IMG/VR virus record: IMGVR_UViG_3300042563_002362
DNA from: a virus
Taxonomy: Duplodnaviria; Heunggongvirae; Uroviricota; Caudoviricetes
Length of the DNA stretch: 43,978 nucleotides
Reading direction: 5' to 3' (one strand)
In this document: in pieces, positions 1,700 through 27,332 of the stretch
Layout: each line of letters starts with the position of its first letter
Position numbering within the stretch: the stretch's first letter is position 1
Program-made: the position numbers and the translations under genes
The notes under the pieces: model-generated
Database searches by the model: none
What the model was told of the DNA's origin: nothing
Seen by the model: only the letters and a program-made list of their open reading frames with translations

Positions 1700-3301
1700 A
1701 TGACTACCGCAAACATTCCACCAAATAACGTCCGCACTCTTGCTCCGCTCAACGTTGACGGATACAAGGTTGATCACCGCCCTCAATACCCAACCAATTC
1801 TGCTCTTGTCTTTAGTAACTTTACTGCACGTGGTACTCGCGTGAAAGGTCTTGACAAGGTCATCTTCTTCGGTCTGCAGTACTTCATGGATGAGTACCTG
1901 ACCAAGGATTGGAATGACAACTTCTTCAACCTTCCGCTTGATGAAGTCACTGAACAATATGGACACGATCTCGTTGGCTACCTTGGTGTGAATAACATCG
2001 GTGATCAGCACATCCGCGATCTCCACGCTCTTGGTCATCTGCCGCTTGAGATCTGGGCTCTGCCTGAGGGCTCGAATGTCGACCTTCGCGTTCCAATGTT
2101 TGTCGTTTGGAATACCGATGCTCGCTTCTTCTGGCTGACCAACGCCATCGAGACTATTCTCTCGACGACCATTTGGCTTCCATGTACCAGTGCTACAACT
2201 GCTCTGATGTATCGCCGTATTCTTCAGCGCTATGCTGATGAAACGAATCCTGAGATGGGCGACTTCGTTCAGTGGCAAGGTCACGACTTCTCGTTCCGCG
2301 GTCACTCCTCGCGTGAATCGGCTTGCACTAGCGGTGCTGGTCACTTGCTTGTCTTCACTGGAACTGATACGCTGCCCGCTGTTAGCCTGCTTGAGAAGCA
2401 CTATGCTTGCAGCCGTAAGACTCAGCTCATCGGTGGTTCGGTTGCTGCAACTGAGCACTCGGTCATGTGCATGGGTGGAATGGAAGACGAAGTTGGTACA
2501 TTCCGTCGCCTGATCGAAGATGTTTACCCAACCGGTATCCTCTCGATCGTTTCGGACACGTGGGACTTCTGGAACGTTGTCAATCCTGATGGCGGCATTG
2601 CTGCTCAACTGAAGGATAAGATTATGGCACGTGATGGTAAGGTTGTGATTCGTCCTGACAGTGGTGATCCAGTTAAGATTGTGACAGGTTATACCGAAGA
2701 TGAGATTGTTCGTCTTGACGGTAAGATCTATGAGAATAACGGACACACTAATGGTAAGGAACTCACCGAACTTGAAGTCAAGGGTATGATTGTGTGCCTT
2801 TGGGAAATCTTCGGGGGTACCGAAACCAGCACGGGTTACAAGCAGCTCGACAGCCACATTGGTGCAATCTATGGCGACAGTATTACCCTTGAACGCGCTG
2901 AGCAAATCTGCGCACGTCTCAAGGCTAAGGGCTTTGCTTCGACCAACCTTGTGTACGGTATCGGATCGTTCACCTATCAGGGTGCTGTTACCGAAGACGC
3001 TATCGTTACTCGTGATACTCACATGTTTGCTGTCAAGAGCACTTACGGCGAAGTCTTCGATGCCGAAGGTAATCGCGTTGGTGTTGAGATCTTCAAAGAT
3101 CCTAAGACTGACGGCGGCATGAAGAAGAGCGCCAAGGGACTCACTGCTGTCTATCGCACTGAGAACGGATTCGCTCTTAAAGATCAGGCAACGTGGGACG
3201 AAGTTAAGAACTGCGCTTTCGTTCAGGTCTACAAGGATGGTAACGTTGTTAAGCGTTGGACTCTCGACGAGGTTCGGGCCGAGGTTGCCAAGAGCTTTTA
3301 A
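1700..3301 (+). CDS. nadV: Nicotinamide phosphoribosyltransferase-like protein (NAMPT/Namat)
   Basis: DGYKVDH, HDFSFRG, ATEHSVM, SIVSDTWD, VIRPDSGDP, IYGDSIT, KDPKTD..KKSAKG motifs. Confidence 0.93.
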   Translation: MTTANIPPNNVRTLAPLNVDGYKVDHRPQYPTNSALVFSNFTARGTRVKGLDKVIFFGLQYFMDEYLTKDWNDNFFNLPLDEVTEQYGHDLVGYLGVNNIGDQHIRDLHALGHLPLEIWALPEGSNVDLRVPMFVVWNTDARFFWLTNAIETILSTTIWLPCTSATTALMYRRILQRYADETNPEMGDFVQWQGHDFSFRGHSSRESACTSGAGHLLVFTGTDTLPAVSLLEKHYACSRKTQLIGGSVAATEHSVMCMGGMEDEVGTFRRLIEDVYPTGILSIVSDTWDFWNVVNPDGGIAAQLKDKIMARDGKVVIRPDSGDPVKIVTGYTEDEIVRLDGKIYENNGHTNGKELTELEVKGMIVCLWEIFGGTETSTGYKQLDSHIGAIYGDSITLERAEQICARLKAKGFASTNLVYGIGSFTYQGAVTEDAIVTRDTHMFAVKSTYGEVFDAEGNRVGVEIFKDPKTDGGMKKSAKGLTAVYRTENGFALKDQATWDEVKNCAFVQVYKDGNVVKRWTLDEVRAEVAKSF

Positions 3302-4647: not shown

Positions 4648-4826
4648 ATAACTATCATGGGAACGCTATTTGACGATTGGTCGCGACTATCGGGATTGTG
4701 CATCGCTACATCATTCATATGGATGCGGTGTTACGGTCAATGAAGAATTGTTGTATGCAGGTATCCCTATGCTACATGTTGAAACAGCGGCTGAAGGTAA
4801 AATAACAAAATTTGAATCTAAGTAAT

Positions 4827-5375
4827 ATGGAAAAACTAAAGACACCTGAAGAATACGGATACGTCCAGCATGGAAACATTGTGCTCTTTCAAAAAGGACC
4901 GCTGTCACAATGGTATGGTGGCTTCTCTGGACAAAGCGGAGGCTTCCATCCTATGCTCGACAAAAATCGTATGTCTACCGATCTGCTCTGTAATTGTGCA
5001 GAGCAATGGATGATGCTGGCAAAGGCAGCAATCTTCAACGATGAAGATACCTACAATTTGATTCGAGATGCAACCAATCCGAAGGATCAAAAGGACCTAG
5101 GCCGTCTTATCAAGAACTATGATGAGACTCTTTGGAGCAAGCACAAATACACTGTTGTTGTTTCGGGTAACACATGGAAGTTTAAGCAAAATCCACACCT
5201 AAAAGAATTCATCACTCAATTTCCACGCAACACAATCTTTGCGGAAGCTGCTCCTTGGGATCGTGTCTGGGGTATTGGTCTTGGACCTGAAGATCCTCGT
5301 GCATTGGACCCTAAGCAATGGAATGGCGAAAACCTTCTTGGAAAAGCGTTGAGTAAAGTTCGTAAACTACTATGA
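4827..5375 (+). CDS. NADAR (YbiA/T4 gp30.3-like) N-glycosidase
   Basis: LSQWY, AEQWMMLAKA..F.D, KF.QN, AEAAPWDRVWGIG, GENLLGKAL motifs. Confidence 0.92.
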   Translation: MEKLKTPEEYGYVQHGNIVLFQKGPLSQWYGGFSGQSGGFHPMLDKNRMSTDLLCNCAEQWMMLAKAAIFNDEDTYNLIRDATNPKDQKDLGRLIKNYDETLWSKHKYTVVVSGNTWKFKQNPHLKEFITQFPRNTIFAEAAPWDRVWGIGLGPEDPRALDPKQWNGENLLGKALSKVRKLL

Positions 5376-9098: not shown

Positions 9099-9132
9099 GG
9101 CAGCTGAATTTAGGTTCAGCTGCCTTTTATTA
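9099..9132 (+). terminator. Rho-independent terminator
   Basis: 10-bp stem GGCAGCTGAA/TTCAGCTGCC followed by TTTTATT. Confidence 0.85.
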
Positions 9133-9167
9133 TTTACATTTTGAGGACAATAAATTATATTAAACAT

Positions 9168-9500
9168 ATGAATATTCCAATACTAAACCGTCTGTATGAA
9201 TTGTTTGGGTCGCCCAATCAATCTTGCTATGCAAACGATATGCTTGCATCATACATGTTTTCATTCCTCGAAGAAGGAGACACTTATGTCGATCTTAAAC
9301 TGCCTCTTGATGTACGTGATCTTATTGAAGAATGTCAGACGTATGTTTTAAGTGATCGCCCAGCTCAAATAAACATTGCAATTGAAGCTGAACTTAGAGA
9401 AGATTATAATCGGTACGATGAAATCATTGCTGCTATTTATGAACAGGATACCGCAGTTCTATGTAATCTTGTTAAAATCCGTAACCACATTTTTGCATGA
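9168..9500 (+). CDS. Hypothetical protein, first gene of the DNA-modification cluster
   Basis: ATG 6 nt after TATATT (9156-61) of a promoter with TTTACA at 9133-38; stop overlaps the gp42 start. Confidence 0.7.
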   Translation: MNIPILNRLYELFGSPNQSCYANDMLASYMFSFLEEGDTYVDLKLPLDVRDLIEECQTYVLSDRPAQINIAIEAELREDYNRYDEIIAAIYEQDTAVLCNLVKIRNHIFA

Positions 9501-10204
9501 AACCTGTCAAAACAGCAGACATCCGCGATACACTTGCTTCTCTCTATAAGCAAGGACAATTTTCAACCGACAAGACTGGTGTAAAAACCGTAGAGATTGT
9601 CGGTGCAAGCTTCATTGCCGACGAACCTACAATCTTTGGTTCTCTCAATGATGAATACATCAAAAAGGAATTGGATTGGTACCTTTCGCAGAGCCTATAT
9701 GTCAAAGACATTGGTGATCCAGTCCCAAAGATTTGGACAGCAGTATCTAGTTCTGAAGGTAAGATCAATTCCAACTATGGATATCTGATTTACTCTGAGG
9801 CCAACGGATTCCAGTTTGATAATGTTCTTAATGAACTGTTCTCAAACAAAGATTCGCGACGCGCTGTAATGATTTACACTCGCCCAACCATGCATAAGGA
9901 TTATAATGCAGATGGCATGAGCGATTTCATTTGCACCAATGCAGTTCAATACTTGATTCGCGATGGTGTATTGCATACAATTGTCCAAATGCGCAGCAAT
10001 GATGTTGTCTTTGGATATCGCAATGACTATGCTTGGCAGCATTACGTATCGTCTTCTCTTCTTAAGCAATACAACGATTGCCTTCAGGATCAAAGCGATG
10101 AAATTACTCTAGGCAGTATTACTTGGCAAGTTGGTTCTTTGCACGTGTATGAAAGACACTTTGGTTTGATTGAGGATTACATTGCTTCACTCTCTGAGCA
10201 ATAA
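9497..10204 (+). CDS. gp42: dCMP hydroxymethylase (T4 gp42 homolog)
   Basis: DKTGVKTVEIVGASF.ADEP.IFG, INSNYG, DSRR..IYTRP, SDFICTN (catalytic Cys), MRSNDVVFGYRNDYAWQ (Asp that specifies dCMP), GSLHVY; close to T4 gp42 as recalled. Confidence 0.95.
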   Translation: MKPVKTADIRDTLASLYKQGQFSTDKTGVKTVEIVGASFIADEPTIFGSLNDEYIKKELDWYLSQSLYVKDIGDPVPKIWTAVSSSEGKINSNYGYLIYSEANGFQFDNVLNELFSNKDSRRAVMIYTRPTMHKDYNADGMSDFICTNAVQYLIRDGVLHTIVQMRSNDVVFGYRNDYAWQHYVSSSLLKQYNDCLQDQSDEITLGSITWQVGSLHVYERHFGLIEDYIASLSEQ

Positions 10205-10244
10205 ATTGTTTACAAACATCATACATCCTGATATAATAATCAAT

Positions 10245-10733
10245 ATGACGGAACAGTTGCATTATGATCCTGAGAATTTTAGAGCGTTCATCCCTAAGAT
10301 TAAAGGAATCAGCAAATTTCCAGAAATCATTGCATATTTGATTCCTGCGCCAGACTACTCAAAGCAACCAACTAAAATAAACTATACCCGAATGGAAGAA
10401 AAAGAAAGCATAAAAATTCTCGACGAGTGTAAAGCTCTTCAAATCAAAAAGTCAAACGACTACCAAAATCCACACTCGCGTATTCGACAAGCGGATTATT
10501 ACCCACGTGGTGTTGCCACAATTCTAGACATCATTCAGGCTAAAGTCCTGCGGATGTATTCAGTGATTGAGGCTATGGAAAATGATCCAAGCTATGTTCC
10601 TAACTTTGAAAGCTTCGAAGATTCGTGTAAAGATTTGATCAACTATGCCAGTTTTGCGGCTGCGTATTCGCGCGGAAAGGTTGATGGTCAGTCTGACTCT
10701 AAGGACTTTCTAAATCGCAATGTGAAGGCATGA
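10245..10733 (+). CDS. Nucleotide-modification-associated (Nmad1/DUF1599-like) all-alpha NTP pyrophosphatase-like protein
   Basis: KKSNDY, K..R, ES.EDS..DLINYA motifs; own promoter TTTACA 10209/TATAAT 10232. Confidence 0.7.
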   Translation: MTEQLHYDPENFRAFIPKIKGISKFPEIIAYLIPAPDYSKQPTKINYTRMEEKESIKILDECKALQIKKSNDYQNPHSRIRQADYYPRGVATILDIIQAKVLRMYSVIEAMENDPSYVPNFESFEDSCKDLINYASFAAAYSRGKVDGQSDSKDFLNRNVKA

Positions 10734-11617
10734 AGAATGTGGTGTTCATACCAACGTCCAATCTTTACAGAGTGCGTACTCTGATAAAGTACTACAATGT
10801 TCATAACTTGCCAACCGATCAGCGAGTGATTTTCATTGCTGATGATCGAGGTAGCATCTCAAAGGAAGAGTATGCTGAGGCTGTAAACGATCCACGTTTT
10901 GAATTGATCTATACGTCGGATATGCTGGCAGGCGTAAATGAACTCTTTGCGGATTGTCCATACTATGATGTAATCATCAATGACATGTATAAAGTGTCAG
11001 TCAAGATGGTTGTGTTCATTTACGCTTCACATGTGTTGGGTATCAAGAAGAGTCTGATGCTTGACGACGACATCTTGTTTCTCAAGCCGCTTGATGAATG
11101 GTTTAAGTATGACTACGTTGTCAAAGAAGATGGCTTGTCAAACATGACAGACGCTCAAGTGAAAGCGTTTCAACGTGCATACCCACATGTTGATGTTGCG
11201 GAATTTAATCAGTCAAAGCATCGCATCAATTCAGGTAGCATTCTTTACACAATGGAAGATAGCAGCCGTCGTCTTCTTGATGATGTTCGTGCATTCTTTT
11301 CGTCAGACGATATTTACCACATCTTCGTGAATCGTCTGAACAAGACCAACAGCCGACGTAAAGGTTGGGGTTATGATTGGATGCTTGAGCAATACTTCTA
11401 TGGTATCCACATGTATTCCTTAGGCGTAGAGATTCCACGCTTCCGCTCGGCAGTCAATATTGCTCTAGGATATCCAAAGGAAGACAAACCACCTAAGCCG
11501 TTCAAGAAAATTCCAAATGTAATTCACTTCCTTCAGATGGAAAAGCAGCGAATGTACGATGCATATCTACCATTGATTGATTCCTATTTGGAAAGCAATA
11601 ATTACAACAACAAATAA
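10730..11617 (+). CDS. GT-A fold glycosyltransferase
   Basis: LMLDDDILF DxD motif, INSG, EQ..., C-terminal VIHF (GT8-like pattern). Confidence 0.7.
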   Translation: MKNVVFIPTSNLYRVRTLIKYYNVHNLPTDQRVIFIADDRGSISKEEYAEAVNDPRFELIYTSDMLAGVNELFADCPYYDVIINDMYKVSVKMVVFIYASHVLGIKKSLMLDDDILFLKPLDEWFKYDYVVKEDGLSNMTDAQVKAFQRAYPHVDVAEFNQSKHRINSGSILYTMEDSSRRLLDDVRAFFSSDDIYHIFVNRLNKTNSRRKGWGYDWMLEQYFYGIHMYSLGVEIPRFRSAVNIALGYPKEDKPPKPFKKIPNVIHFLQMEKQRMYDAYLPLIDSYLESNNYNNK

Positions 11618-11633
11618 CAAAACAACAATCATT

Positions 11634-13022
11634 ATGAGAAAATTCACAGTAGCGTTTTTCGCATTGGGTTCGGCACTAAAGTTTGATGAGAGTAAAGTTC
11701 TACGTTCAGACGGAAGTAGCGAATACCTTGCGTTAGCCAAATTGCTCCTTCGCAACAAGTCTATCGAAAAGATCGTTCTTCTTTCAAAGTCTGACCTTGC
11801 ACGTATCAGCCCTCAAAAGCGAAACGAACTTGATCCTGAAGGTAAACTGTTTAATCCATATGAGGCCTTTCCACAACTCCGAAAATTCCCTCGCATGGAA
11901 GATATTCCAGCTGAGGAATGGCCTAATCAGTTTATTGGTTTCACAAAAGCTATGGATGACGCTGGCATAAAGTGCGACTTTGGTATCGGCTTTACTTCAC
12001 AAGGTCATGCGGTTCTTTCGCTTGGTGGTTACCTTTGGACTGTTCGTGACACTCCTGAAAAGCCTCGCTCTAAGGCAAAGTGTTTGTCTATGTCATTGCG
12101 CTATGCAGCTGACCCAGTCTATTACCTCGGCTCACACCCAGAATTGAATTGGTGGTTGCTTGCAACAGATCCTCGGTATGTCAAGCCATCTATGCGCCAT
12201 CGTGACAACGCAAACCTTCCAAAGAAAGTTCTTGGGCAGCATGACTTTGACATTAAGTGGCATACAATCAAAAAGCTACATCCTGACGCGCTTGAAGAGA
12301 ATGGTGACTTCCATGACGTCTATCTCAAGTCAGAATACAGCGGAATTGAAAAGATGAACCTTATGGGCGAAGGTGTTCTTGATCCTGAGAAAACAGATAA
12401 GCCTAACAAGTTTACGATTGTATCCATGCAGGTGTCGGCTCCTTCTGCAACTGAAGATCTACGTTATGACATTCTTAAGGAATACATCATTGATCGTGAT
12501 CCTGAAGGTAAGGCAAACATCTATGGAAAATGGAATGACTACTTTAAGAAAGATCATGTCCAATTCAAAGGATACATTGCAACTGAAGATCTTGACAAAA
12601 CATTTGCAGATACTCGCTATACGCTAGTGCTTCCAACTGAAGCAGGATGGGTAACAAGTAAGTATGCTGAAATGCTACAGCTTGCAGTTGTTCCATTCTT
12701 GCATCCGCGATATGACACTCAATATCACATCGTTCCAAAGGATCATTTCATTCGCGTTAAAGACGCTGATGATTTCTACAAGAAGATGGAATACCTTGAC
12801 ACGAATCCAAACAAGCGTATTGCACTGCTTAAGGATTTGCAAAACGGTCTCATCAAGGAAGCGTTCACTGGTAAGTTTATGATTGACCTGCTGAACAAAC
12901 AACTCGATGAATATAACTATGAAAACCGTCTAGACGATTCTGAAGAATCTCTTTGGCCTCTGAAGGAAAAGGTAATCACTGTCCCTGAGAAGGACGTTTC
13001 ACTCGACCAATTTTTCGCATAA
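11634..13022 (+). CDS. T4 beta-glucosyltransferase-like (GT-B) DNA glycosyltransferase
   Basis: SSEY (cf. BGT PSSET), LATDPR (cf. FTDIR catalytic Asp), TSKYAEML..VPFLHPRYDTQYHIV..IRVKD (cf. TLRVWETM..DEEFDTKHRII..FYV). Confidence 0.75.
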   Translation: MRKFTVAFFALGSALKFDESKVLRSDGSSEYLALAKLLLRNKSIEKIVLLSKSDLARISPQKRNELDPEGKLFNPYEAFPQLRKFPRMEDIPAEEWPNQFIGFTKAMDDAGIKCDFGIGFTSQGHAVLSLGGYLWTVRDTPEKPRSKAKCLSMSLRYAADPVYYLGSHPELNWWLLATDPRYVKPSMRHRDNANLPKKVLGQHDFDIKWHTIKKLHPDALEENGDFHDVYLKSEYSGIEKMNLMGEGVLDPEKTDKPNKFTIVSMQVSAPSATEDLRYDILKEYIIDRDPEGKANIYGKWNDYFKKDHVQFKGYIATEDLDKTFADTRYTLVLPTEAGWVTSKYAEMLQLAVVPFLHPRYDTQYHIVPKDHFIRVKDADDFYKKMEYLDTNPNKRIALLKDLQNGLIKEAFTGKFMIDLLNKQLDEYNYENRLDDSEESLWPLKEKVITVPEKDVSLDQFFA

Positions 13023-13044
13023 CATTCTCATATATAATACACAC

Positions 13045-14007
13045 ATGAAGAAACTGACAATCGTAACTACGACAATTAACTCGCCAACTGAAGCCACTCA
13101 CCGCTTTGCAAAAATTGCAAGCGACAAAGGTTTTAAGTTGGTTATCGCAGGTGATACTAAAACTCCACATGCCGAATATGAAGCATTGGCAGCTAAGTAT
13201 GGTAAGGACGTGATCCATTACCTTTCACCTGAAACGCAGGAAAGACTGTTCCCACTGCTTTCCGAAACGATCGGATGGAAAACCATTCAGCGACGTAATG
13301 TTGGATATGCCTATGCCTATCTACATACCGATGCAGACGTAATTGCAACTGTTGACGATGATAACATTCCTTATGCAAATTGGGGTGAAAACATTTTGGT
13401 TGGTGAAGACGTTACCTATGATTGCTACATCAACAAGAGATCTGATTATTTTGATCCTCTATCGGTAACAAAGGACAACTATGTTTGGCATCGCGGCTAT
13501 CCGATTCAGCATCTACAAACTCGTCATGACAATGAATATCGTGGACCGTCCGTAAAGCGCTGCTTGGTTCAGGCAATGCTTTGGGATGGTGATCCTGACA
13601 TTGATGCAATGGCTCGTCTGACACATAAGCCCTGCGTTCGCTACAATGACATCACGCGTCCATACGGAAGTACGCAGCTTGCTCCGTTTAACTCTCAAAA
13701 TACTTTCCTTGACCGTTCGGTAATGCCAGTTTATGCTGTGCTTCCATATGTCGGTCGTATGGATGATATTTGGGGTGCATACATTATGCAATCATATTTC
13801 CCTAACAGCGTCGTCTATGATGTTGCTACGGTCTATCAAGATCGCAACGTTCAAGACCTTGTTACCAATCTCGAAAATGAAGTCATCGGATATCGCAATA
13901 CCCTGAAGCTCGTTGAGCACATTCGTAACGGCGAAGACTTCTTCAGCATTCTTCCAGATACAACAAAGCGCTTTTGGGATACTTACACAACAACACTTAA
14001 TCAATAA
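13045..14007 (+). CDS. GT75/STELLO (RGP/UDP-sugar mutase-related) protein
   Basis: VTTTIN.PT, GDTKTP, RRNVGY, VDDDN, WHRGYP, DGDPDIDA, PFNSQNT, RMDDIW motifs. Confidence 0.82.
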   Translation: MKKLTIVTTTINSPTEATHRFAKIASDKGFKLVIAGDTKTPHAEYEALAAKYGKDVIHYLSPETQERLFPLLSETIGWKTIQRRNVGYAYAYLHTDADVIATVDDDNIPYANWGENILVGEDVTYDCYINKRSDYFDPLSVTKDNYVWHRGYPIQHLQTRHDNEYRGPSVKRCLVQAMLWDGDPDIDAMARLTHKPCVRYNDITRPYGSTQLAPFNSQNTFLDRSVMPVYAVLPYVGRMDDIWGAYIMQSYFPNSVVYDVATVYQDRNVQDLVTNLENEVIGYRNTLKLVEHIRNGEDFFSILPDTTKRFWDTYTTTLNQ

Positions 14008-15032
14008 TGAAACAAAAAACAGCATTGGTATTGGGCGGAGGCGGCTTTATTGGCGGCCATCTTGCAAAACGTTTGAAGGATGAAGGATTCTACGTTCGTG
14101 TAGTTGACATCAAGCCTCAACATGAGTATTGGGATCACGCAGTCATGTGCGATGAATATGTTGCTGGAGATCTACGCGATCCACGCGTTGTTTCACGTGT
14201 AATGTTTGCGCCAGATCAGGGTTCTGAAAGTAATCCTGGATTTGACGAAGTGTATCAACTAGCAGCTGATATGGGCGGTGCAGGTTATATCTTTACGGGT
14301 GAGCATGACGCTGATGTTATGCATAACTCTGCAATGATTAACTTGAATGTTGCGTATGAAGCGTCTAAGAAAAACGTTCAGCGTATTTTTTATTCTTCTT
14401 CGGCATGCATGTATCCAGAGCATAATCAGTTGGATCCTGACAACCCGAACTGTGAAGAATCATCTGCTTATCCAGCAAATCCAGATAGTGAATATGGTTG
14501 GGAAAAGCTTTTTAGTGAGCGTATGTTCTTTGCCTTTGCACGTAACTACAACCTAGACGTTCGTGTTGCACGATTCCATAACATCTTTGGGCCTATGGGT
14601 ACATATGATGGTGGAAAAGAAAAGGCTCCAGCCGCTATGTGCCGCAAGGCTCTATTGGCAGATGGAGAAATTGAAGTATGGGGTGACGGTAAACAAACGC
14701 GTTCATTCTTATACATCGACGACTGCCTCGAGGCTATCATACGATTCATGCGACAAGATACTTTTGAAGGTCCAGTAAACATTGGTTCGGAAGAGCAGGT
14801 TACAATTAACCAACTTGCCGAAATGGCAATTGGTCTATCAAAGAAAGACACTGTCATTCGTAACATCGAAGGCGCTGACTTTGAAGCTAAGTATGGCTTC
14901 AGATGTCCAGTTGGTGTACGTGGACGTAATTCCGACAACCGTCTCTATCGTGAAAAGATGGGATGGGAAGTTTCTCAACCACTGCTTGTTGGTATGGAGA
15001 AGACTTACGAATGGATCTCTTCACGTTACTAA
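14007..15032 (+). CDS. GDP-mannose 3,5-epimerase-like extended SDR
   Basis: GGGGFIG, LAADMGG.G.I, YSSSACMYP (catalytic Cys), YGWEK, GGKEKAPAAMCRK (catalytic Lys), GVRGRNSDN. Confidence 0.9.
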   Translation: MKQKTALVLGGGGFIGGHLAKRLKDEGFYVRVVDIKPQHEYWDHAVMCDEYVAGDLRDPRVVSRVMFAPDQGSESNPGFDEVYQLAADMGGAGYIFTGEHDADVMHNSAMINLNVAYEASKKNVQRIFYSSSACMYPEHNQLDPDNPNCEESSAYPANPDSEYGWEKLFSERMFFAFARNYNLDVRVARFHNIFGPMGTYDGGKEKAPAAMCRKALLADGEIEVWGDGKQTRSFLYIDDCLEAIIRFMRQDTFEGPVNIGSEEQVTINQLAEMAIGLSKKDTVIRNIEGADFEAKYGFRCPVGVRGRNSDNRLYREKMGWEVSQPLLVGMEKTYEWISSRY

Positions 15033-15046
15033 ACAAAATACTCATC

Positions 15047-15082
15047 AAACCCAGGGAGCGGAATGTTCCCCTGGGTTTCTTA
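15047..15082 (+). terminator. Rho-independent terminator
   Basis: AAACCCAGG/CCTGGGTTT stem followed by TCTTAT. Confidence 0.7.
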
Positions 15083-15095
15083 TAGATAAATTACA

Positions 15096-16361
15096 ATGAA
15101 TTTGAAATACGCAGCAATTGTTCCTCTAATTGGAGGTGAAGTATTAGGTACAGCTGAAGCTCTAAATGGACAACTACCTGAATATGTACTGTCATACACC
15201 CCATTTAAGAATAACGACGAACACTACATCAATTATATCCGTACACAAAAAGGCTGGTCCGGTGATTATGTTTTCTTGGACGAAGATCCTGACTATGTAG
15301 CGCCGCATGTAGACGTTGTTCTTACAACATGCCCTTGTGCTGGATTATCAAGCTTTAGTACAACAAGCAGTGAAAACAGTGCAACCAATGATTGGATGTA
15401 TCGCACTGCCGAATACGTACTTGGCACAATCAAGCCAACTGTCTTTTGGGGAGAAAACGCTCCACGATTGTATGGTAACAGCGGTAAGAAAGTAGCAGAT
15501 CGTCTACATGAAATTGGTAAAGAACTTGGATACAGTCTGAATCTTTACTACACTGAAAGCCGTCTGCATGGTCTATCGCAAAAGAGACCGCGCACTTTCT
15601 ACTTCTTTACAAAGAGTGATACTGCTCCTATCTTCCCATGGCATCGTAAGGAAGAAGAACCGGTTGTCGATCTATTGAAGATTCCAAAGGACGCTGAAGA
15701 TCCAATGAACGTTCTTACAAACCAAGAATGTCCAACTGCAAATGCATGGGTTGCCTATAACATGGCAATGACTGGATCAAAGACAATCCGTGAATTGTCC
15801 ACTCACTTTGAGAAGACAACAAACTTGATCGTGAACACCGACGGTGGATACGGTAAAGGTCTGTTAGAAGTTGCAGATTGGATGGATGCAAATGGATTCT
15901 CGCATACAGCTAATCGCGCACGTGCTATGCAGGCTAAATTGGATGATGGTAAAGGTTATTGGGCGCACGGTGTTACTCTTCCAAAAGGTAACTCCATTCC
16001 AGCATTTATTGGACCGCTTCCATACTTCCTAATCAATCCAGAGACTGAAAAGTACATTACGATTCGTGATGGTCTTCGTCTGATGAAGATGCCAGATGAT
16101 TTTAATCTTGTAGGTGATAAGCCGCTCTCTAAGATTAACCACATTTGCCAAAACGTTCCAGTTACGACTGCACGTGACATGATGCTTAATGTACTTGAAT
16201 ATCTTGACGGCAAAACAATCAATGGAGACTGCTCGTACATCAAACAGAGCAACAAGAACAAGACAGTTGTTCGCGTTACTCTTGATGAAACTTATGCAGC
16301 AAATACTGCGGAGCTTGATGAGTTTTTCCATTTACATAAACATAAAACTGATATACAATAA
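15096..16361 (+). CDS. C5-cytosine DNA methyltransferase-like protein with atypical motif I
   Basis: CPCAGLS (IV), GENAP (VI), QKRPR (VIII), TIRDGLRLMKMPDDF (IX), CQNVPV (X); motif I reads IVPLIGG rather than FxGxGG. Confidence 0.78.
   Translation: MNLKYAAIVPLIGGEVLGTAEALNGQLPEYVLSYTPFKNNDEHYINYIRTQKGWSGDYVFLDEDPDYVAPHVDVVLTTCPCAGLSSFSTTSSENSATNDWMYRTAEYVLGTIKPTVFWGENAPRLYGNSGKKVADRLHEIGKELGYSLNLYYTESRLHGLSQKRPRTFYFFTKSDTAPIFPWHRKEEEPVVDLLKIPKDAEDPMNVLTNQECPTANAWVAYNMAMTGSKTIRELSTHFEKTTNLIVNTDGGYGKGLLEVADWMDANGFSHTANRARAMQAKLDDGKGYWAHGVTLPKGNSIPAFIGPLPYFLINPETEKYITIRDGLRLMKMPDDFNLVGDKPLSKINHICQNVPVTTARDMMLNVLEYLDGKTINGDCSYIKQSNKNKTVVRVTLDETYAANTAELDEFFHLHKHKTDIQ
16331..16359 (+). promoter_or_regulatory. 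sigma70-like promoter for uvsX
   Basis: TTTACA 16331-36, 17 nt, TACAAT 16354-59. Confidence 0.7.
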
Positions 16362-16375
16362 TAACATAATAACAC

Positions 16376-17458
16376 ATGTCATCTATACTCGAAAAATTAA
16401 AAAAGAATTGCCGAATTAAAGAAGCCGATGTTCTGTCGGAATCAGACTTCTATTCGGAAAAGGATATTACTCCTACACCAGTGCCGATGATTAATGTTGC
16501 TCTTAGTGGCAGCATTGACGGTGGACTTACCAGCGGACTAACAGTTCTTGCAGGTCCGTCTAAGCACTTCAAAACTAGCTTTGCTCTTCTTATGGCAGCA
16601 AGCTATTTGAAAAAGCATAAGGACGCGATTCTTATGTTCTATGATTCCGAATTCGGATCACCGCAGCAATACTTTGAAAGCTTTGGCATTGATACATCAC
16701 GTGTTCTACATATTCCGATCAAGAACGTCGAAGAACTAAAGTTTGACTTGGTTAACCAACTTGACCAAATCGACCGTAAGGATAAGGTTGCAATCGTCAT
16801 CGACTCCGTTGGTAACCTTGCAAGTAAGAAGGAACTTGAAGATGCTCTGAATGAAAAGAGCGTCGCGGATATGACACGCGCTAAGGCGCTTAAAGGTCTG
16901 TTCCGTATGGTTACTCCATACCTTACGATGAAGAACATTCCGCTTATTGCGATCAACCACACCTACCAGGAAATTGGATTGTTCCCGAAGGCGATTGTTA
17001 GTGGTGGTACTGGCATCACCTATTCCGCTGACAACATTTGGATTCTTGGACGTCAGCAAGATAAAGATGGTACCGAAATTCAAGGATATCACTTCATTAT
17101 CAATGTTGAGAAATCTCGCTTTGTTAAGGAAAAGTCGAAGATCCCGATCAGCGTAAGCTGGGAAGGTGGTATCCAGAAGTGGTCTGGATTGCTTGATGTT
17201 GCGATTGATGGCGGATATGTTATTAAGCCAAAGAATGGTTGGTACATGGCAGTGAATAAGGCAACGGGAGAACCACTTACACAAAACCTACGAGCTGCGC
17301 AGACTATGACGGCTGACTTCTGGGGTAAGGTGTTTAACAACACCGACTTTGCCAAATACCTTAAGGACAAGTATACCATTGGTCTACGTGACATGATCAC
17401 TGAGACTGCATCTAAGGACTTGTCCGATGATGAAATCATTGAGCAGTACGAAGAGTAA
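16376..17458 (+). CDS. uvsX: RecA-like recombinase UvsX
   Basis: NVALSG..GG, AGPSKHFKT (Walker A), FYDSEFG, IDSVGNLASKKE, SVADMTRAK, SGGTG. Confidence 0.97.
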   Translation: MSSILEKLKKNCRIKEADVLSESDFYSEKDITPTPVPMINVALSGSIDGGLTSGLTVLAGPSKHFKTSFALLMAASYLKKHKDAILMFYDSEFGSPQQYFESFGIDTSRVLHIPIKNVEELKFDLVNQLDQIDRKDKVAIVIDSVGNLASKKELEDALNEKSVADMTRAKALKGLFRMVTPYLTMKNIPLIAINHTYQEIGLFPKAIVSGGTGITYSADNIWILGRQQDKDGTEIQGYHFIINVEKSRFVKEKSKIPISVSWEGGIQKWSGLLDVAIDGGYVIKPKNGWYMAVNKATGEPLTQNLRAAQTMTADFWGKVFNNTDFAKYLKDKYTIGLRDMITETASKDLSDDEIIEQYEE

Positions 17459-17757
17459 TGAAAGAAGGAAAAGACTACTTGTTGGTCGAAGATGATTTAC
17501 ATCCAGACCAATTCCTGATACAATTAACAAGTAGCGGATATGCTGGTATCGTTTACCGTTATGGTAAAGTCAGTATAATTGAGGAAAAAAATCAGGCACG
17601 TTTGCGATTTATCTACAAAATCGAGAGCGTGCCTGATTCCCTCACACACCGCCGCGACATGCTAAAAGAAGATCCCGAATTCAATAATCATATCGGTGAT
17701 ATCTTAGCTGACATTATTTCAAACAACGACTACATAATAGGAAGACCACATGACTGA
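17458..17757 (+). CDS. gp40-like head vertex assembly chaperone
   Basis: Size and position between uvsX and gp41 match T4 synteny; YRYGKV and FNNHIGDIL segments. Confidence 0.55.
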   Translation: MKEGKDYLLVEDDLHPDQFLIQLTSSGYAGIVYRYGKVSIIEEKNQARLRFIYKIESVPDSLTHRRDMLKEDPEFNNHIGDILADIISNNDYIIGRPHD

Positions 17758-19519
17758 CGTTTCAATCGAATCACTTATATTAAATAATCTTGTCAATAGC
17801 GAACCATACACGCGTAAGGCAATGCCTCACATTAAGCCTGAATACTTCACGGGCTCACAACGCGTAATTTATGAGCTGATTCTCGACTTCATCAGTAAGT
17901 ACAATAAGCTGCCAAACTCTAGCGTACTTGACATTGAATTCCAAAAAAGTAATGCTGCCGTCCGTCCAGACCGACATGAGATTCTTCAGGCTATTCATGA
18001 TTTTGCTACACCTCAGCCAGCCGAACATGATTGGCTTGTAGATAGCACCGAAAAGTGGTGTAAGGATCGCGCCGTTCATTTGGCTGTTATGGAAGCCATC
18101 TCGATCATTGATGGTAAAAGCGCCGATAAAGCCGAAGGAGCAATTCCAGAGATTTTGAACAAGGCGTTGAGCGTTACGTTTGACACAAACGTAGGTCACG
18201 ATTACCTTGAGAACGCAGATCGTCGATTTGATTTTTATCATCACGTTGAAGATAAGATCGAGTTTGACCTTGATATGTTCAACCAAATTACCAATGGTGG
18301 TGTACCTCGCAAGACTCTGAATATCATCTTAGCTGGGTGTGTTCACCCTGATACTAAAATTGTTGTGAGGATAACTTCGCTTGCGGTTGAAAAAGAAATT
18401 AAAATCGGTGAAGTGAAAGCTTTACTCGAAAACGGTTATACACTTGAAGTTTCATCTCCTGATGGTTGGGTTAAGATATCGGATTTTATCGACAAAGGTC
18501 AATGGGATGAATACTCATTCAGTTGTAATGATAAGAATATTTCATGCAATGAAAATCATCTTTTCCAATCAACGTTAGGGTGGATGAGTGCGAAGGATAT
18601 ATTTAATGCTCAAGAAGTTACTTTATCAAAATTGCACTTTTTCTGTGATACTGGGCGATATGAACCTGGCACAGTCATAAAAACCGGAAAGAAGATTCCA
18701 ATTGTTGATATTCACGTTGAGCATAATAACAACCGATACTACACAAATGGAATCTCCTCGCATAATACAGGCGTTGGTAAGAGTTTGGGTATGTGTCACC
18801 TTGCAGCGGCAGATCTTTCCATGGGGCGCGATGTTCTTTACATTACGATGGAAATGGCAGAAGAACGTATTGCTGAACGTATTGATGCTAACCTGCTTGA
18901 CGTTCGTATTGATGAACTGAAGAACCTGTCACAAGCCACGTTCTCCTCCAAGATTAAGAACTTGTCAGACCGAACAAAAGGTAAGATTGTCATTAAGGAA
19001 TATCCAACTGCAAGCGCGCATGTCGGTCACTTCCGTGCATTGCTACATGAACTTAAACTGAAAAAGAAGTTCACGCCTGACGTCATCTACATCGACTATC
19101 TTAACATTTGCGCCAGCAGTCGTATCAAAGGTCTAAGCGGAAGTGTCAATACTTACAGTTTAATCAAGGCAATTGCTGAAGAACTGCGTGGTCTCGCTGT
19201 TGAATTTAATGTTCCGATTTGGAGTGCAACACAAACAAATCGCAATGGATATTGTTTAGATCCTTTAACTATTGTTGAAACGGAATATGGTAATAAACGC
19301 TTAAATGAAATTGTGGTTGGTGATTGTATAAAAAGCAATACTGGCTTTAATGAGGTGGTTACAGTGTTTCCTAAAACAAAAAAGAAAGCATATCGTATTA
19401 CGACTTCTTCAGGAAAGACTATTATTTGTAGCGCCGATCATAAATTCCCAGTCAATGATATTGATAAGTCAATTAACTCTGGATTAAAAATTGGAGATTC
19501 TTTAGTGACGTTGAACTAA
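17750..19519 (+). CDS. gp41: gp41 replicative helicase N-terminal part (cis mini-intein + N-half of split intein)
   Basis: TEKWCKDRA, FDTNVGHDY, ILAG/TGVGKS Walker A split by the intein, ITMEMAEE, KEYPT, IDYLNICAS, SATQTNR. Confidence 0.95.
   Translation: MTDVSIESLILNNLVNSEPYTRKAMPHIKPEYFTGSQRVIYELILDFISKYNKLPNSSVLDIEFQKSNAAVRPDRHEILQAIHDFATPQPAEHDWLVDSTEKWCKDRAVHLAVMEAISIIDGKSADKAEGAIPEILNKALSVTFDTNVGHDYLENADRRFDFYHHVEDKIEFDLDMFNQITNGGVPRKTLNIILAGCVHPDTKIVVRITSLAVEKEIKIGEVKALLENGYTLEVSSPDGWVKISDFIDKGQWDEYSFSCNDKNISCNENHLFQSTLGWMSAKDIFNAQEVTLSKLHFFCDTGRYEPGTVIKTGKKIPIVDIHVEHNNNRYYTNGISSHNTGVGKSLGMCHLAAADLSMGRDVLYITMEMAEERIAERIDANLLDVRIDELKNLSQATFSSKIKNLSDRTKGKIVIKEYPTASAHVGHFRALLHELKLKKKFTPDVIYIDYLNICASSRIKGLSGSVNTYSLIKAIAEELRGLAVEFNVPIWSATQTNRNGYCLDPLTIVETEYGNKRLNEIVVGDCIKSNTGFNEVVTVFPKTKKKAYRITTSSGKTIICSADHKFPVNDIDKSINSGLKIGDSLVTLN
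18338..18766 (+). mobile_element. Cis mini-intein (143 aa) in the gp41 Walker A
   Basis: Starts CVHPDT, block B CNENH, ends YYTNGISSHN before Thr+1; removal restores AGTGVGKS; no endonuclease domain. Confidence 0.92.
19253..19516 (+). mobile_element. Split intein N-fragment (88 aa, gp41-1-like)
   Basis: NGY|CLDPLT..SNTGFNEVVTVFPKTKKKAY..GKTIICSADHKFP..SGLK then stop. Confidence 0.93.
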
Positions 19520-19526
19520 CACATAT

Positions 19527-19534
19527 TATAAATA
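19527..19534 (+). promoter_or_regulatory. T4-type late promoter TATAAATA
   Basis: Exact consensus, 5 nt before the HNH gene ATG. Confidence 0.75.
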
Positions 19535-19539
19535 GTTAT

Positions 19540-20217
19540 ATGCCAAATAACTATAGAAAAATCTGGGAAGAACATAATCATCAAAAAATTCCAGAAGGAT
19601 ATCACATACATCATATAGACGGAAATCATGATAATAATGATCCATTGAATTTAGAATGCTTAAGAGCTGAGGACCACTGGCAAAGACATTATGAACAGGG
19701 AGATATTGTCGCAATAAACGGCAAATTTATTCAAGGTGCAAGTGAAGCGGGAAAAAAGGGTGGGGCAGCTGGTAAAGGGAAAACTAAAGATCATAGTAAT
19801 GGAAAACTATCCAAAAGTTTAAAGGAATCATACATTAAAAGAGGCGGAAGTCCTCTTAAAGGACGCGTTTTGTCGGATGAACATATTAAAAACATTACAT
19901 TAGCGGTCCAAGGCGAAAATAATCCAATGTTTGGTAAGAAGCACTCAGAAGAATCAATATCACTAATCCGAATAAATAGAGGTTCTCTTGAAGGCGAAAA
20001 TAATCCAATGTTTGGTAAAACGCAATCAGATGAAACTAAACAAAAAATATCAGATAAAGCAAAAGGGAGAAAATCGAAGATGAAAGGGCGGATTAACGAA
20101 ACAACCCGATCAAGAAAATACAAATGGTATAATGATGGGGTAACTTCATTTTTTATGCCAGAAGGAACGCAGCCCGAAAATTATAAACTAGGAAGAATTA
20201 AAACATGGAAGAATTGA
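19540..20217 (+). CDS. Free-standing HNH homing endonuclease with NUMOD3 repeats
   Basis: HIHHIDGNHDNNDPLNL..L...H; GENNPMFGK x2; KWYNDG; AT-rich; lies between the intein halves. Confidence 0.92.
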   Translation: MPNNYRKIWEEHNHQKIPEGYHIHHIDGNHDNNDPLNLECLRAEDHWQRHYEQGDIVAINGKFIQGASEAGKKGGAAGKGKTKDHSNGKLSKSLKESYIKRGGSPLKGRVLSDEHIKNITLAVQGENNPMFGKKHSEESISLIRINRGSLEGENNPMFGKTQSDETKQKISDKAKGRKSKMKGRINETTRSRKYKWYNDGVTSFFMPEGTQPENYKLGRIKTWKN

Positions 20218-25114: not shown

Positions 25115-26353
25115 ATGAAATCATTTAAGGAATACATTGCTGAAGCTTCAGCTGAAGGTAAGAACCTTCACATGACGCATATCGAAGATCAGGTAATTTA
25201 CGGAGGCGTTAAAGGAGCACGTGAAGCAATCCTTGCGCTACGTAGCCTACGTGATATGCTTGCGGGGAACGCTAAAACTTCAACTGACGTTACGGTAAAA
25301 TGGGACGGTGCACCTGCAGTATTTGCAGGGATTGATCCATCGGATGGTCAGTTCTTCGTTGCTAAGAAAGGTATCTTCAACAAGAACCCAAAGATCTATA
25401 AGAGCGTATCTGACGTTCGCGCCGATACATCTGGAGACCTTGCTGATAAACTATCCATTGCTTTTAACGAATTGCAGAAGCTTGGGATTAAAGGAGTACT
25501 TCAAGGCGACATCATGTTTACTCAAAAGGATCTTAGCGTTGAAGACTATGATGGCGAAAAGTACATCACGTTCCAACCTAACACAATCGTTTATGCAGTT
25601 CCAGCTGATAGCGATGTTGCAAAGAGTATCAAGAAAGCTAAGATTGGTGTAGTATTCCATACACGATACAGCGGAGCTACTCTTGAAACCATGAAAGCTT
25701 CTTATGACTTTGATCAGAGCGAACTTAAAAAGACTCCATCGGTTTGGTTCCAAGACGCAAAGGTTCATGACCTTTCGGGTAAAGCTACCTTTACGGCTGA
25801 AGAAACTGCTGAATTAACCGCAAGACTTTCGGTCGCAGGTAAGATATTCCAGAAGATCAACAGCTCAACACTTAAGGAAATTGAAGACAATCCTGACTTT
25901 GCACAAAGCCTTGAAACATTCAATAACACGTATGTACGTCGAGGCGAGGTTGTTTCTAACACAAAGGCACATGTTGATAATCTAATCAAATGGGCAACCG
26001 ATCGTTTCAATAAAGATATTGAGTCCAAGAAGTCAGAGAAAGGTAAGGAAACAGCATCTGCTAAGCGTGATCAATATATGAAGTTCTTTTCGGATGAAAA
26101 CAAAAAGAACCTTAACTTGGTTTATCAGTTGCAAAACGCGATTATTGATGCAAAGAGACTTATTATAAATAAACTCGATACTCTTAAAAAGTTAAGCACT
26201 TTTGTGCGAACATCAAGTGGATTCCGTGTTACAGGCCAAGAAGGTTTTGTTGCAATCGACCATCTATCAGGTGGAGCAGTGAAATTGGTTGACCGTATGG
26301 AATTCTCTAAGAATAACTTTTCGGCTGACATAATTAAAGGGTGGGATCGCTAA
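25115..26353 (+). CDS. Capsid-targeted ligase-fold nucleotidyltransferase (DUF6267-like)
   Basis: Leader MKSFKEYIAE; motif I VKWDGAP, III QGD, IV EGFV, V VKLV. Confidence 0.7.
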   Translation: MKSFKEYIAEASAEGKNLHMTHIEDQVIYGGVKGAREAILALRSLRDMLAGNAKTSTDVTVKWDGAPAVFAGIDPSDGQFFVAKKGIFNKNPKIYKSVSDVRADTSGDLADKLSIAFNELQKLGIKGVLQGDIMFTQKDLSVEDYDGEKYITFQPNTIVYAVPADSDVAKSIKKAKIGVVFHTRYSGATLETMKASYDFDQSELKKTPSVWFQDAKVHDLSGKATFTAEETAELTARLSVAGKIFQKINSSTLKEIEDNPDFAQSLETFNNTYVRRGEVVSNTKAHVDNLIKWATDRFNKDIESKKSEKGKETASAKRDQYMKFFSDENKKNLNLVYQLQNAIIDAKRLIINKLDTLKKLSTFVRTSSGFRVTGQEGFVAIDHLSGGAVKLVDRMEFSKNNFSADIIKGWDR

Positions 26354-26354
26354 T

Positions 26355-27332
26355 ATGAAACAATCAGATACTACGACTGCAAAGAAAGAACCTAAGAAGA
26401 TTAGATTGAGAGATCTGATTCCAGTTGACTATACCGATGGCTCATGGCCCGAAGACGAACAAGGTGAGTTGACATACGATTATTGGAAGCGTGCTTCAGG
26501 AGTTCTTGATGAAGAAGAGATCGAAGAAAGTGGTTCGTGGATTGATGGTTATATTGACAAGTATACACAAATGGTATACAAGCCTAAAGAAGAAATCTTA
26601 ACACTAACTTGGAGAAATTACGAAAAATTTCCAAAGGATGTTAAGCTTGATAAAGCTTCATGGGAAATACTAAGTAAATCACAAAATCGTCCACGTGCCT
26701 TTAATCAGTTGTGGATGAGCGGAAAGATTAAGGCTATGAAAGAAGAAACCTCTCTCGATGAAGCATATGATACTGAACTCTCTAAGTATCAACTAAATGG
26801 AGAGCTTAATCGCGTTAACGGTCGTATTAAGTTTTTACAATCAGCACATCGTGGTTCCGCTTTACCCGCTGATGTTGCATCTGAACTAAAGAAGCTTCAA
26901 GACCTGCGTGATAGTATTCTCGCAATGCTTAAGGAAGAAGATATCCTCGACGACGTTGATGCAGACACCATAACTGAAGCTCTAAACATGCTGCAACGTA
27001 TGAAGCGTCGTGCTATCATGCGTAGAAACAAATCTAAGATTCTCGCAGGTCGACGTCGCGCTCAACGCCGTCGTGCATCTACATCTGTTCTTCAACAGCG
27101 CGCTATGCGTGCAGCTCGTGCAGCACTTGCTCGTCGACTATTACGTAAAAACAAAGGTGAAGCCAGTTACGGAGAAAAAGTTCGTGTTGAAAAAATGCTC
27201 GCTTCTCGCCGCGGTGCAATTAAAAACATTGCTCGCCGCCTTCTTTCAAAAGTTCGCCAAAAGGAACGTATGCGTTTCCAAAAGCACGCCACTCCGCCAA
27301 AACCAATTCAATCCGTAAAGCCAAATAAGTAA
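26355..27332 (+). CDS. Putative prohead core/internal protein with Arg-rich C-terminal domain
   Basis: Acidic linkers (LDE, IEE, ITE) followed by RMKRRAIMRRNKSK..RRRAQRRR. Confidence 0.6.
   Translation: MKQSDTTTAKKEPKKIRLRDLIPVDYTDGSWPEDEQGELTYDYWKRASGVLDEEEIEESGSWIDGYIDKYTQMVYKPKEEILTLTWRNYEKFPKDVKLDKASWEILSKSQNRPRAFNQLWMSGKIKAMKEETSLDEAYDTELSKYQLNGELNRVNGRIKFLQSAHRGSALPADVASELKKLQDLRDSILAMLKEEDILDDVDADTITEALNMLQRMKRRAIMRRNKSKILAGRRRAQRRRASTSVLQQRAMRAARAALARRLLRKNKGEASYGEKVRVEKMLASRRGAIKNIARRLLSKVRQKERMRFQKHATPPKPIQSVKPNK

Follow-up and report, generated by a model that had tools for sequence, protein, structure and literature searches.

A phage operon upstream of uvsX that may glycosylate 5-hydroxymethylcytosine with a sugar derived from GDP-mannose

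Introduction

What does a T4-like phage attach to its DNA when, beside the genes for a dCMP hydroxymethylase and glycosyltransferases (GTs), it carries a sugar epimerase of its own? This question is raised by a 43,978-nt stretch of DNA from an uncultured T4-like phage (hereafter, the window), in which eight contiguous, tightly packed genes occupy positions 9168-16361 of the + strand and are followed downstream by the genes for the UvsX recombinase, a 99-amino acid (aa) product and the gp41 helicase. The gene order is that of T4 (42, b-gt, uvsX, 40, 41), and RB69 has its own DNA-sugar (arabinosylation) cluster at the equivalent site, just upstream of uvsX-40-41.

A preliminary description of the window proposed that the phage makes a non-host L-sugar, possibly in furanose form, and uses it to build a mono- to trisaccharide on 5-hydroxymethylcytosine (hmC). 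All of the genes listed there were found, contiguous and on the + strand, adjoining uvsX and gene 41. The T4 42/b-gt position was likewise confirmed, and a GT-B enzyme resembling T4 β-glucosyltransferase (BGT), a GT-A enzyme, a relative of the GT75 family, a genuine GDP-mannose 3,5-epimerase (GME) and a C5-methyltransferase (MTase)-like gene are located there. As for the downstream flank, given as uvsX-40-41, uvsX and 41 were borne out, while the 99-aa open reading frame (ORF) can be called gp40 by its position only. The reading that we hold to be somewhat probable is that the operon encodes a pathway of hmC glycosylation with an L-sugar donor of the L-galactose type derived from GDP-mannose.

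Results

A hydroxymethylase of the T4 type

The second gene of the operon (9497-10204, + strand) encodes a ThyA homolog that matches the T4 dCMP hydroxymethylase (CH; 1B5E) with an E value of 1e-85 and PF00303 with an E value of 2.6e-15, and is about 60% identical to gp42 of a T4-like phage of Aeromonas. Both the thymidylate synthase fold and the catalytic cysteine C146 were found in this protein, and together with D143, D169 and D177 (E. coli ThyA numbering) the cysteine makes up the signature of T4 gp42. It was recently reported that the RB69-type 'gp42 homologs' make 5-hydroxy-dCMP and not 5-hydroxymethyl-dCMP, the marker being the D169N substitution (PMC13326640, 2026). In the rules for ThyA homologs given in the same study, N177D stands for dCMP specificity and L143D/E for water access (PMC13326640). 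In the window protein, D169 is part of the motif MRSNDVVFGYRNDYAW, whereas RB69 gp48, the 5-hydroxycytosine (5hoC) synthase that served as a control, has N169 at this position together with E143; the canonical thymidylate synthases, also used as controls, have L143 and N177. The reading of the window enzyme as an RB69-type 5-hydroxy-dCMP synthase was rejected, since its residue 169 is D and not N, and since it is 23% identical to gp48 against an E value of 1e-85 to T4 CH. The base is predicted to be hmC because the T4 gp42 signature, D169 included, is kept and the gp48 control differs from it just as the D169N rule predicts. Judged by its sequence, the enzyme is a T4 gp42-type dCMP hydroxymethylase whose predicted product is 5-hydroxymethyl-dCMP, and the earlier claim of an hmC-type base is supported by the complete D143/C146/D169/D177 signature.

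The next gene (10245-10733, + strand, with an alternative TTG start at 10170) encodes an all-helical protein of 162 aa that was previously called an Nmad1-like pyrophosphatase. Its match to the Pfam family DUF1599 (PF07659) is weak (E 0.09, 13.6 bits versus a curated cut-off of 25), and a weak PF07659 match was also obtained with its ortholog from L095, a relative of the window. The protein further matches phrog_1485 and a 'hydrolase' phrog, and in an Atlas feature search the DUF1599-bearing set accounted for 25 of the 30 matches. The Atlas matches and the ortholog speak for a DUF1599/Nmad1-like protein, on weak evidence, and the pyrophosphatase activity is a surmise; the protein is possibly an enzyme of the nucleotide pool.

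The glycosyltransferases

The GT-B enzyme (11634-13022, + strand; 462 aa; Pfam Glyco_trans_1_2, E 7e-7) occupies the positional equivalent of T4 b-gt. Its AlphaFold2 (AF2) model has a predicted local distance difference test (pLDDT) score of 93.5, and when this model was used in a Foldseek search of the PDB, T4 BGT made up the top five matches (E 2.6e-8). With VIA-align, 312 residues were aligned to T4 BGT at a Z of 20.7 and a root mean square deviation of 4.4, as compared to a Z of 17.3 for the next family and of 16.4 for the T4 alpha-glucosyltransferase. On the strength of this model, the GT-B is structurally nearest to T4 BGT and is a candidate hmC-DNA glycosyltransferase.

The 295-aa GT-A enzyme (10730-11617, + strand) was recognized through its predicted structure. 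The AF2 model (pLDDT 88) has a GT8-like (retaining) fold, and Foldseek relates it to glycogenin, XXYLT1, LARGE1 and LgtC with E values of ~1e-6 and template modeling (TM) scores of 0.45-0.5; a DXD motif, DDD112-114, is invariant in the family alignment. No sequence family was matched by this protein in Pfam and profile searches, and tblastn against phage records gave no match. PDB sequence searches with the GT-A, the GT-B and the MTase-like protein returned nothing usable. The structure search of the GTs, named in the preliminary description as a check, agreed with the assignments, leading from the GT-B to T4 BGT and from the 295-aa protein to a GT8-like fold.

A distant homolog of the GT-A (30% identity) is encoded in another T4-like contig, L092 (8486-16406), beside an IMPDH/FMN-dehydrogenase-like gene and a dCMP deaminase gene. 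The same cluster contains a GT of the TAGT family (similar to the T4 alpha-glucosyltransferase), an epimerase, a UDP-glucose dehydrogenase and a GT4, with no ThyA within 10 kb, and it may represent a different base-glycosylation pathway.

The GT-B family has at least 308 relatives in IMG/VR, and the counts of gene context that follow come from the 80 best loci (L098-L177), with at most 10 kb of DNA examined on each side. A ThyA homolog with the hydroxymethylase signature (D169/D177) is present in 47 of these loci, and these are all the ThyA homologs found there; where at least 8 kb was available on both sides, a ThyA homolog is present in 25 of 35 loci. A C5-MTase-like gene lies just downstream of the GT-B gene in 77 of the 80 loci, with a median gap of 141 nt. 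A BGT-like GT and a C5-MTase-fold protein that are so rarely apart amount to a widespread module, of which no description was found in the literature searched. Judged from these contexts, phages of the hmC type are where this GT-B family belongs.

RB69-like phosphatase and nucleotidyltransferase-kinase genes are present in 63 of the 80 GT-B loci and GME together with GT75 in only 4 of them. This common arrangement is also that of a cultured phage, Pseudoalteromonas phage XG4, where the genes for a D169-bearing ThyA homolog, an RB69-like pair for sugar activation, the GT-B and the MTase-like protein are lined up one after another. The commonest loci, with D169 ThyA and RB69-like activation genes, suggest a widespread pathway of the pentosyl- or arabinosyl-hmC type that is distinct from the 5hoC pathway of RB69.

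The supply of the sugar

The epimerase encoded at 14007-15032 (+ strand) matches Arabidopsis GME (2C59) with an E value of 1.4e-82. In the alignment to 2C59, where the chain index equals the residue number plus 2, the residues S143, C145, Y174, K178 and K217 and the GVRGRNSDN segment are all kept. Among them are the S/Y/K triad of extended short-chain dehydrogenases/reductases (SDRs) and the acid/base pair Cys145 and Lys217 of the Arabidopsis enzyme. Going by this conservation, the protein is a GME, predicted to convert GDP-D-mannose into GDP-L-galactose/GDP-L-gulose.

The preceding gene (13045-14007, + strand) encodes a GT75-like protein of 320 aa, the only solved sequence relative of which is the GT75 mutase MtdL (7XPR/7YUA; E 5e-19). 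The MtdL residues T13, I15, D40, R90, DDD109-111, R159, D195, S228, Q229, R257, D260 and R289 are kept in it, and the positions responsible for GDP specificity are kept as well (Thr13 as T, Asp40 as D, and Ser86 as T/S). Across 59 distinct viral GT75-like homologs, the DXD motif, Arg159, D195, Q229, R257 and D260 are invariant, and the substitutions N42K, D87I, H287Q and H292Q are constant. In MtdL, D87N and D87S abolish activity, and H287 and R257 are the residues by whose absence the inactive AtRGP5 stands out (PMC9937993). Because of H287Q and D87I, we file the 320-aa protein as GT75-like and not as a proven mutase. The pattern of conservation indicates that the viral GT75-like proteins form a functional but distinct subfamily, and the window protein is a candidate ring-contracting mutase of a GDP-sugar. 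A furanose form of the sugar is plausible, weakened as it is by the two substitutions.

GME is encoded within about 1 to 6 kb of the GT75-like gene in 55 of 68 IMG/VR loci, and directly adjoins it in many of them. GME and GT75 as a module specific to hmC were considered and rejected, the pair being common in phages without an hmC synthase. Since it is found in many such phages, the pair is better viewed as a mobile module for sugar donors, independent of hmC. The synteny survey recommended in the preliminary description gave a divided answer, tying the GT-B family to hydroxymethylase-type ThyA but showing that the GME and GT75 pair is common in phages that have no hmC synthase.

Inheritance and replacement of the sugar genes as a cassette

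The strongest argument for a connection between the sugar supply and the GT-B comes from relatives of the window, for which percent identities to the window proteins are given. In L095 they are 74 for GT-B, 86 for GT75 and 87 for GME, as compared to 79 for UvsX, 58 for the MTase-like protein and 61 for gp42. In L005/L096, which represent another lineage, GT-B is 60, GT75 66-68 and GME 67-75, while UvsX is 37-39 and the MTase-like protein 32-34; a ThyA homolog of the hydroxymethylase signature is encoded elsewhere in the contig. In both cases GT-B, GT75 and GME are better conserved than the backbone. The opposite situation is seen in the metagenomic phage L090, where UvsX is 97, the MTase-like protein 88, gp42 85 and the GT-A 88, whereas GT-B is 26, GT75 is missing and the nearest counterpart of GME, at 22, is a different SDR. 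Here the same frame, with flanking genes 88-90% identical, encloses a different cassette (L090 10878-14670 versus window 11634-15032) that consists of a 349-aa protein, a cytidylyltransferase-like gene, the other SDR and the GT-B of 26% identity.

By these comparisons, GT-B, the GT75-like protein and GME are inherited and replaced as one unit across phage lineages, the behaviour to be expected of a transferase and the pathway that supplies its donor, which argues that the product of GME and the GT75-like protein ends up on the acceptor of the GT-B. It also follows that, with the GT-B and the sugar-supply genes forming an exchangeable cassette, closely related phages can carry different DNA glycans; the pair of the window and L090, with 97% identical UvsX but a different GT-B and donor cassette, would be an example of cassette swapping that diversifies such glycans. 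The proposed route from GDP-mannose through GDP-L-galactose to a furanose mirrors the MtdL system (PMC9937993) and is strengthened by this co-inheritance, but H287Q and D87I weaken its last step.

In L005, the genes for GME and the MTase-fold protein are separated by one for a 132-aa SET-domain protein (4864-5262; PF00856, E 2e-11). Those cultured phages whose UvsX is closest to that of the window carry unlike genes at the same replication-gene neighbourhood: Phage C48C1 (L003, 8292-12038), the genome of which contains no ThyA, has there an epimerase, a UDP-glucose dehydrogenase and a DNA methyltransferase, and Acidovorax phage ACP17 (L004, 11434-16850) has the 7-deazaguanine genes QueD/FolE/QueE. 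Genes of DNA modification thus seem to gather at this locus as at a hotspot.

The C5-methyltransferase-fold protein

The last gene of the operon (15096-16361, + strand) encodes a protein with the fold of C5-cytosine MTases, matched by Pfam DNA_methylase (E 1e-15) over profile positions 49-318 only. Invariant in 29 members of the family are P80-C81 (the PC of motif IV), E120-N121-A122-P123 (motif VI), Q162/R164/R166 (motif VIII) and a QNVP motif. The S-adenosylmethionine (SAM)-binding motif I reads PLIGG and not FxGxG, the first Gly being replaced by a Leu that is invariant in the family. Because of this altered motif and of the Pfam match that starts only at profile position 49, we do not file the protein as a methyltransferase; ordinary methylation of the phage's own cytosines is in addition unlikely because in hmC DNA the C5 position is already substituted. 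From its conservation and genomic context, the protein, the catalytic core of which is intact, is a conserved accessory or partner of the GT-B family. A prediction of its complex with the GT-B had a score of 0.00 and gave no answer, which is evidence neither way.

It is possible, if unlikely, that the protein works without SAM, as an enzyme whose substrate is the hmC, or glycosyl-hmC, of DNA. Attack at C6 could in this case activate the 5-CH2-O position, and either the final base would be no simple O-glycoside or glycosylation would need the MTase-fold protein as a base-flipping partner. If true, a SAM-independent step combined with a GDP-L-hexofuranose donor would be a DNA base chemistry without a described counterpart.

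In cyanophage S-TIM5 (L088, 9305-10522 and 12906-13742), a homolog of the MTase-fold protein (27%) is located ~2.4 kb away from a ThyA homolog that has D177, as dCMP-type enzymes do, and a residue other than Leu at 143. The cytosine of this phage may also be modified at C5.

Discussion

The proposed pathway and its alternatives

The genes can be arranged into the following pathway. The gp42-type enzyme, identified by sequence, would produce 5-hydroxymethyl-dCMP, and hmC would replace cytosine at replication. GME, also assigned by sequence, would convert GDP-D-mannose of the host into GDP-L-galactose/L-gulose, and the GT75-like protein would then probably contract the ring to a GDP-L-hexofuranose, as MtdL does. 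After replication, the BGT-like GT-B may act on double-stranded DNA and attach this sugar to hmC at its hydroxymethyl group, and the GT8-like GT-A may add a second or an alternative sugar. The C5-MTase-fold protein would take part as a conserved accessory of the GT-B. The idea of a mono- to trisaccharide comes solely from the number of GT-like genes.

Several observations weigh against this pathway. The acceptor, the donor, the ring form and the length of the glycan are all predictions. The GT-B family profile aligned to the T4 BGT sequence (hhalign) only weakly and in the C-terminal domain only (E 0.025, probability 2%), and the 320-aa protein has lost both the Mn2+ ligand of MtdL, His287, which is Q, and its sugar-contacting Asp87, which is I. 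The window's GT-B and MTase-like gene are missing from 67 of the 68 IMG/VR GT75 loci. Of the five virus records with GME and GT75 whose completeness is 90% or more, three are devoid of a ThyA homolog, and the ThyA homologs of the others are canonical thymidylate synthases (L143, N177); in the complete genomes of cyanophages S-T4 and Sf-CH8 the pair is found inside large glycan islands, with no ThyA. Finally, the window showed neither a dCTPase nor a dNMP kinase, and among relatives no PRA-PH/MazG dCTPase was found in G001, a 28%-complete record that was the one reached by this search.

How else could the operon be explained? It could be that hmC is glycosylated from donors of the host, such as UDP-glucose, and that GME and the GT75-like protein feed another target, either a virion protein or a glycan of the host envelope, as is presumably the case in cyanophages. 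Two facts favour this: all characterised DNA glycosyltransferases in the literature searched use UDP-sugars, and the GME and GT75 pair is widespread without an hmC synthase, in large islands that also contain genes for heptose, cytidylyltransferases and GTs. The difficulty is that GT-B, GT75 and GME have been passed on together in different lineages, with less divergence than the backbone, and were replaced together in L090, that the sugar genes are embedded between the hydroxymethylase and the constant partner gene of the GT-B, and that the operon, by its gene list and by family searches, has no other acceptor-related genes, i.e., membrane, flippase or structural ones; we consider this explanation unlikely but one to be taken seriously. 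A more radical version, that the whole sugar part modifies a non-DNA target (capsid or tail proteins, or the host surface) and that the position by gene 42 is just a recombination hotspot, takes support from the unrelated cassettes that C48C1 and ACP17 have at the same locus. Those cassettes, however, consist mostly of DNA-modification genes themselves, the structure nearest to the GT-B is a DNA glucosyltransferase, and the constant company of the GT-B family is a ThyA of the hydroxymethylase type and a gene of DNA-methyltransferase fold, which makes a non-DNA target quite improbable.

The third alternative leaves the sugar on DNA and concerns its ring. If the GT75-like protein were a glycosyltransferase or a self-glycosylating protein and not a mutase, then the DNA sugar would be L-galactopyranose or L-gulopyranose, and one more residue would be attached by the GT75-like protein. 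The GT75 family is of the GT-A fold and its members autoglycosylate a conserved arginine, which is kept here as R150, and every one of the 59 viral homologs has Q in place of H287 and I in place of D87; on the other hand, the mutase residues defined by mutagenesis are nearly all invariant (R159, D195, Q229, R257, D260 and D109), and the gene is tightly paired with GME in 55 of 68 loci no matter which GTs lie around them, as would suit an enzyme of a donor pathway. We regard this alternative as rather unlikely.

Relation to known systems

The glycosylation of hmC by an L-galactose-type sugar made from GDP-mannose, which we prefer, may be compared with four systems. T4 (gp42 plus BGT, a GT63 enzyme) has in common with the window the active-site signature of the hydroxymethylase, the position upstream of uvsX-40-41 and the nearest GT-B fold. 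T4, however, relies on host UDP-glucose and encodes no sugar-nucleotide enzymes, whereas the window operon adds GME, the GT75-like protein, the GT8-like GT-A and the C5-MTase-fold protein; the window GT-B is also 110 aa longer than T4 BGT and 15-16% identical to it. In the A201A cluster, MtdL is fed by a GDP-mannose 3,5-epimerase, and in the window the GT75-like gene directly adjoins the GME gene. MtdL and Hyg20, from the A201A and hygromycin A pathways, are pyranose-furanose mutases of GDP-L-galactose/L-fucose, and MtdL has the guanine-binding T13/D40 in common with the window protein (PMC9937993). MtdL and the window protein differ in length (376 versus 320 aa), in setting (an antibiotic cluster versus a phage DNA-modification operon) and in the viral substitutions H287Q, D87I, N42K and H292Q.

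The arabinosyl-5-hydroxycytosine system of RB69/DLP3 (PMC13326640) shares with the window its locus and its general plan, i.e., a ThyA homolog that produces a modified, in that case hydroxylated, dCMP, a phage-encoded NDP-sugar pathway and several GTs; in RB69/DLP3, several GT-B enzymes build mono- to tri-glycosides on DNA (PMC13326640). The base differs, being 5hoC in RB69/DLP3 and predicted 5hmC in the window, and so does the sugar route, which is GDP-mannose-derived in the window and goes through arabinose-5-P isomerase, phosphatase and kinase-uridylyltransferase in RB69/DLP3. Unlike the window, the RB69 cluster region, examined between 24 and 31 kb, contains no C5-MTase-fold gene.

The combination of 5hmC, GTs and a partner epimerase is not new. 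It was demonstrated experimentally for metavirome clusters that glycosylation of 5hmC by phage GT-A/GT-B enzymes strictly requires a partner sugar epimerase, and ThyS-associated GT clusters with epimerases and methyltransferases were catalogued (bioRxiv 10.1101/2023.12.21.572611). The C5-MT/TET(5mYOX)+GT+epimerase pathways of that study differ from the window in being post-replicative, with an active C5-MT and a dioxygenase, and yield hexose (Hex), N-acetylhexosamine (HexNAc) and hexuronic acid (HexA) products (10.1101/2023.12.21.572611); the words 'GDP', 'mutase' and 'furanos' do not occur in its text. In the literature searched, we found neither a link of GDP-L-galactose to phage DNA modification nor the combination of a dCMP hydroxymethylase, a cytosine methyltransferase and a glycosyltransferase, and the characterised DNA glycosyltransferases there use UDP-sugar donors of D-configuration in pyranose or arabinose form. 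The statement in the preliminary description that it knew of no description of such a base thus holds, within this literature, for the L-galactose-type sugar but not for the partnership of 5hmC, GTs and an epimerase.

If the pathway is as proposed, a sugar derived from GDP-L-galactose, possibly a furanose, on hmC would constitute a new class of DNA glycan, one that type IV restriction enzymes and DNA glycosylases directed at glucosyl-hmC would probably fail to recognise. Most likely, it is the sugar variant that is new in this operon, while the anti-restriction strategy, a T4-type decoration of hmC, is already known.

Boundaries of the operon and neighbouring genes

On the upstream side the operon is bounded, just before its first gene, by a terminator-like hairpin with an 11-bp stem and a T run (9099-9124, + strand) and by a promoter-like site (9133-9161, + strand); both are consensus matches only, and the number of such promoters in the region equals that expected by chance. 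The first gene (9168-9500, + strand) encodes a 110-aa helical protein that is conserved upstream of the ThyA gene in L090 (57% identity); no family was found for it in Pfam, PHROGs and NCBIfam, and the Atlas search gave no usable match. Downstream, UvsX (16376-17458, + strand; PF21134 and RecA; phrog_97, E 8e-90) is a flanking marker of the T4 42/b-gt locus and stands outside the pathway. Megablast of the region against 50,697 phage records returned no match.

Further upstream, the window encodes a nicotinamide phosphoribosyltransferase (NAMPT; phrog_448, E 5e-174) and nearby NAD-related genes (1700-3301 and 4812-5375), and NAMPT, Nuc_deoxyri_tr2 and NADAR are kept in L090. At 25115-28570 there are a DUF6267 protein (E 2e-102) and, with one ORF between the two, a cytidylyltransferase-like and DUF5824 protein; a weak homolog of DUF6267 is also encoded close to the cluster of XG4, with no link to the sugar operon established. 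At 17750-20217, the gp41 helicase ORF of 589 aa, whose C-terminal part is intein-like (PF14890, E 3e-5), is followed by an HNH endonuclease gene, and in L095 an intein-like insertion is found in UvsX instead.

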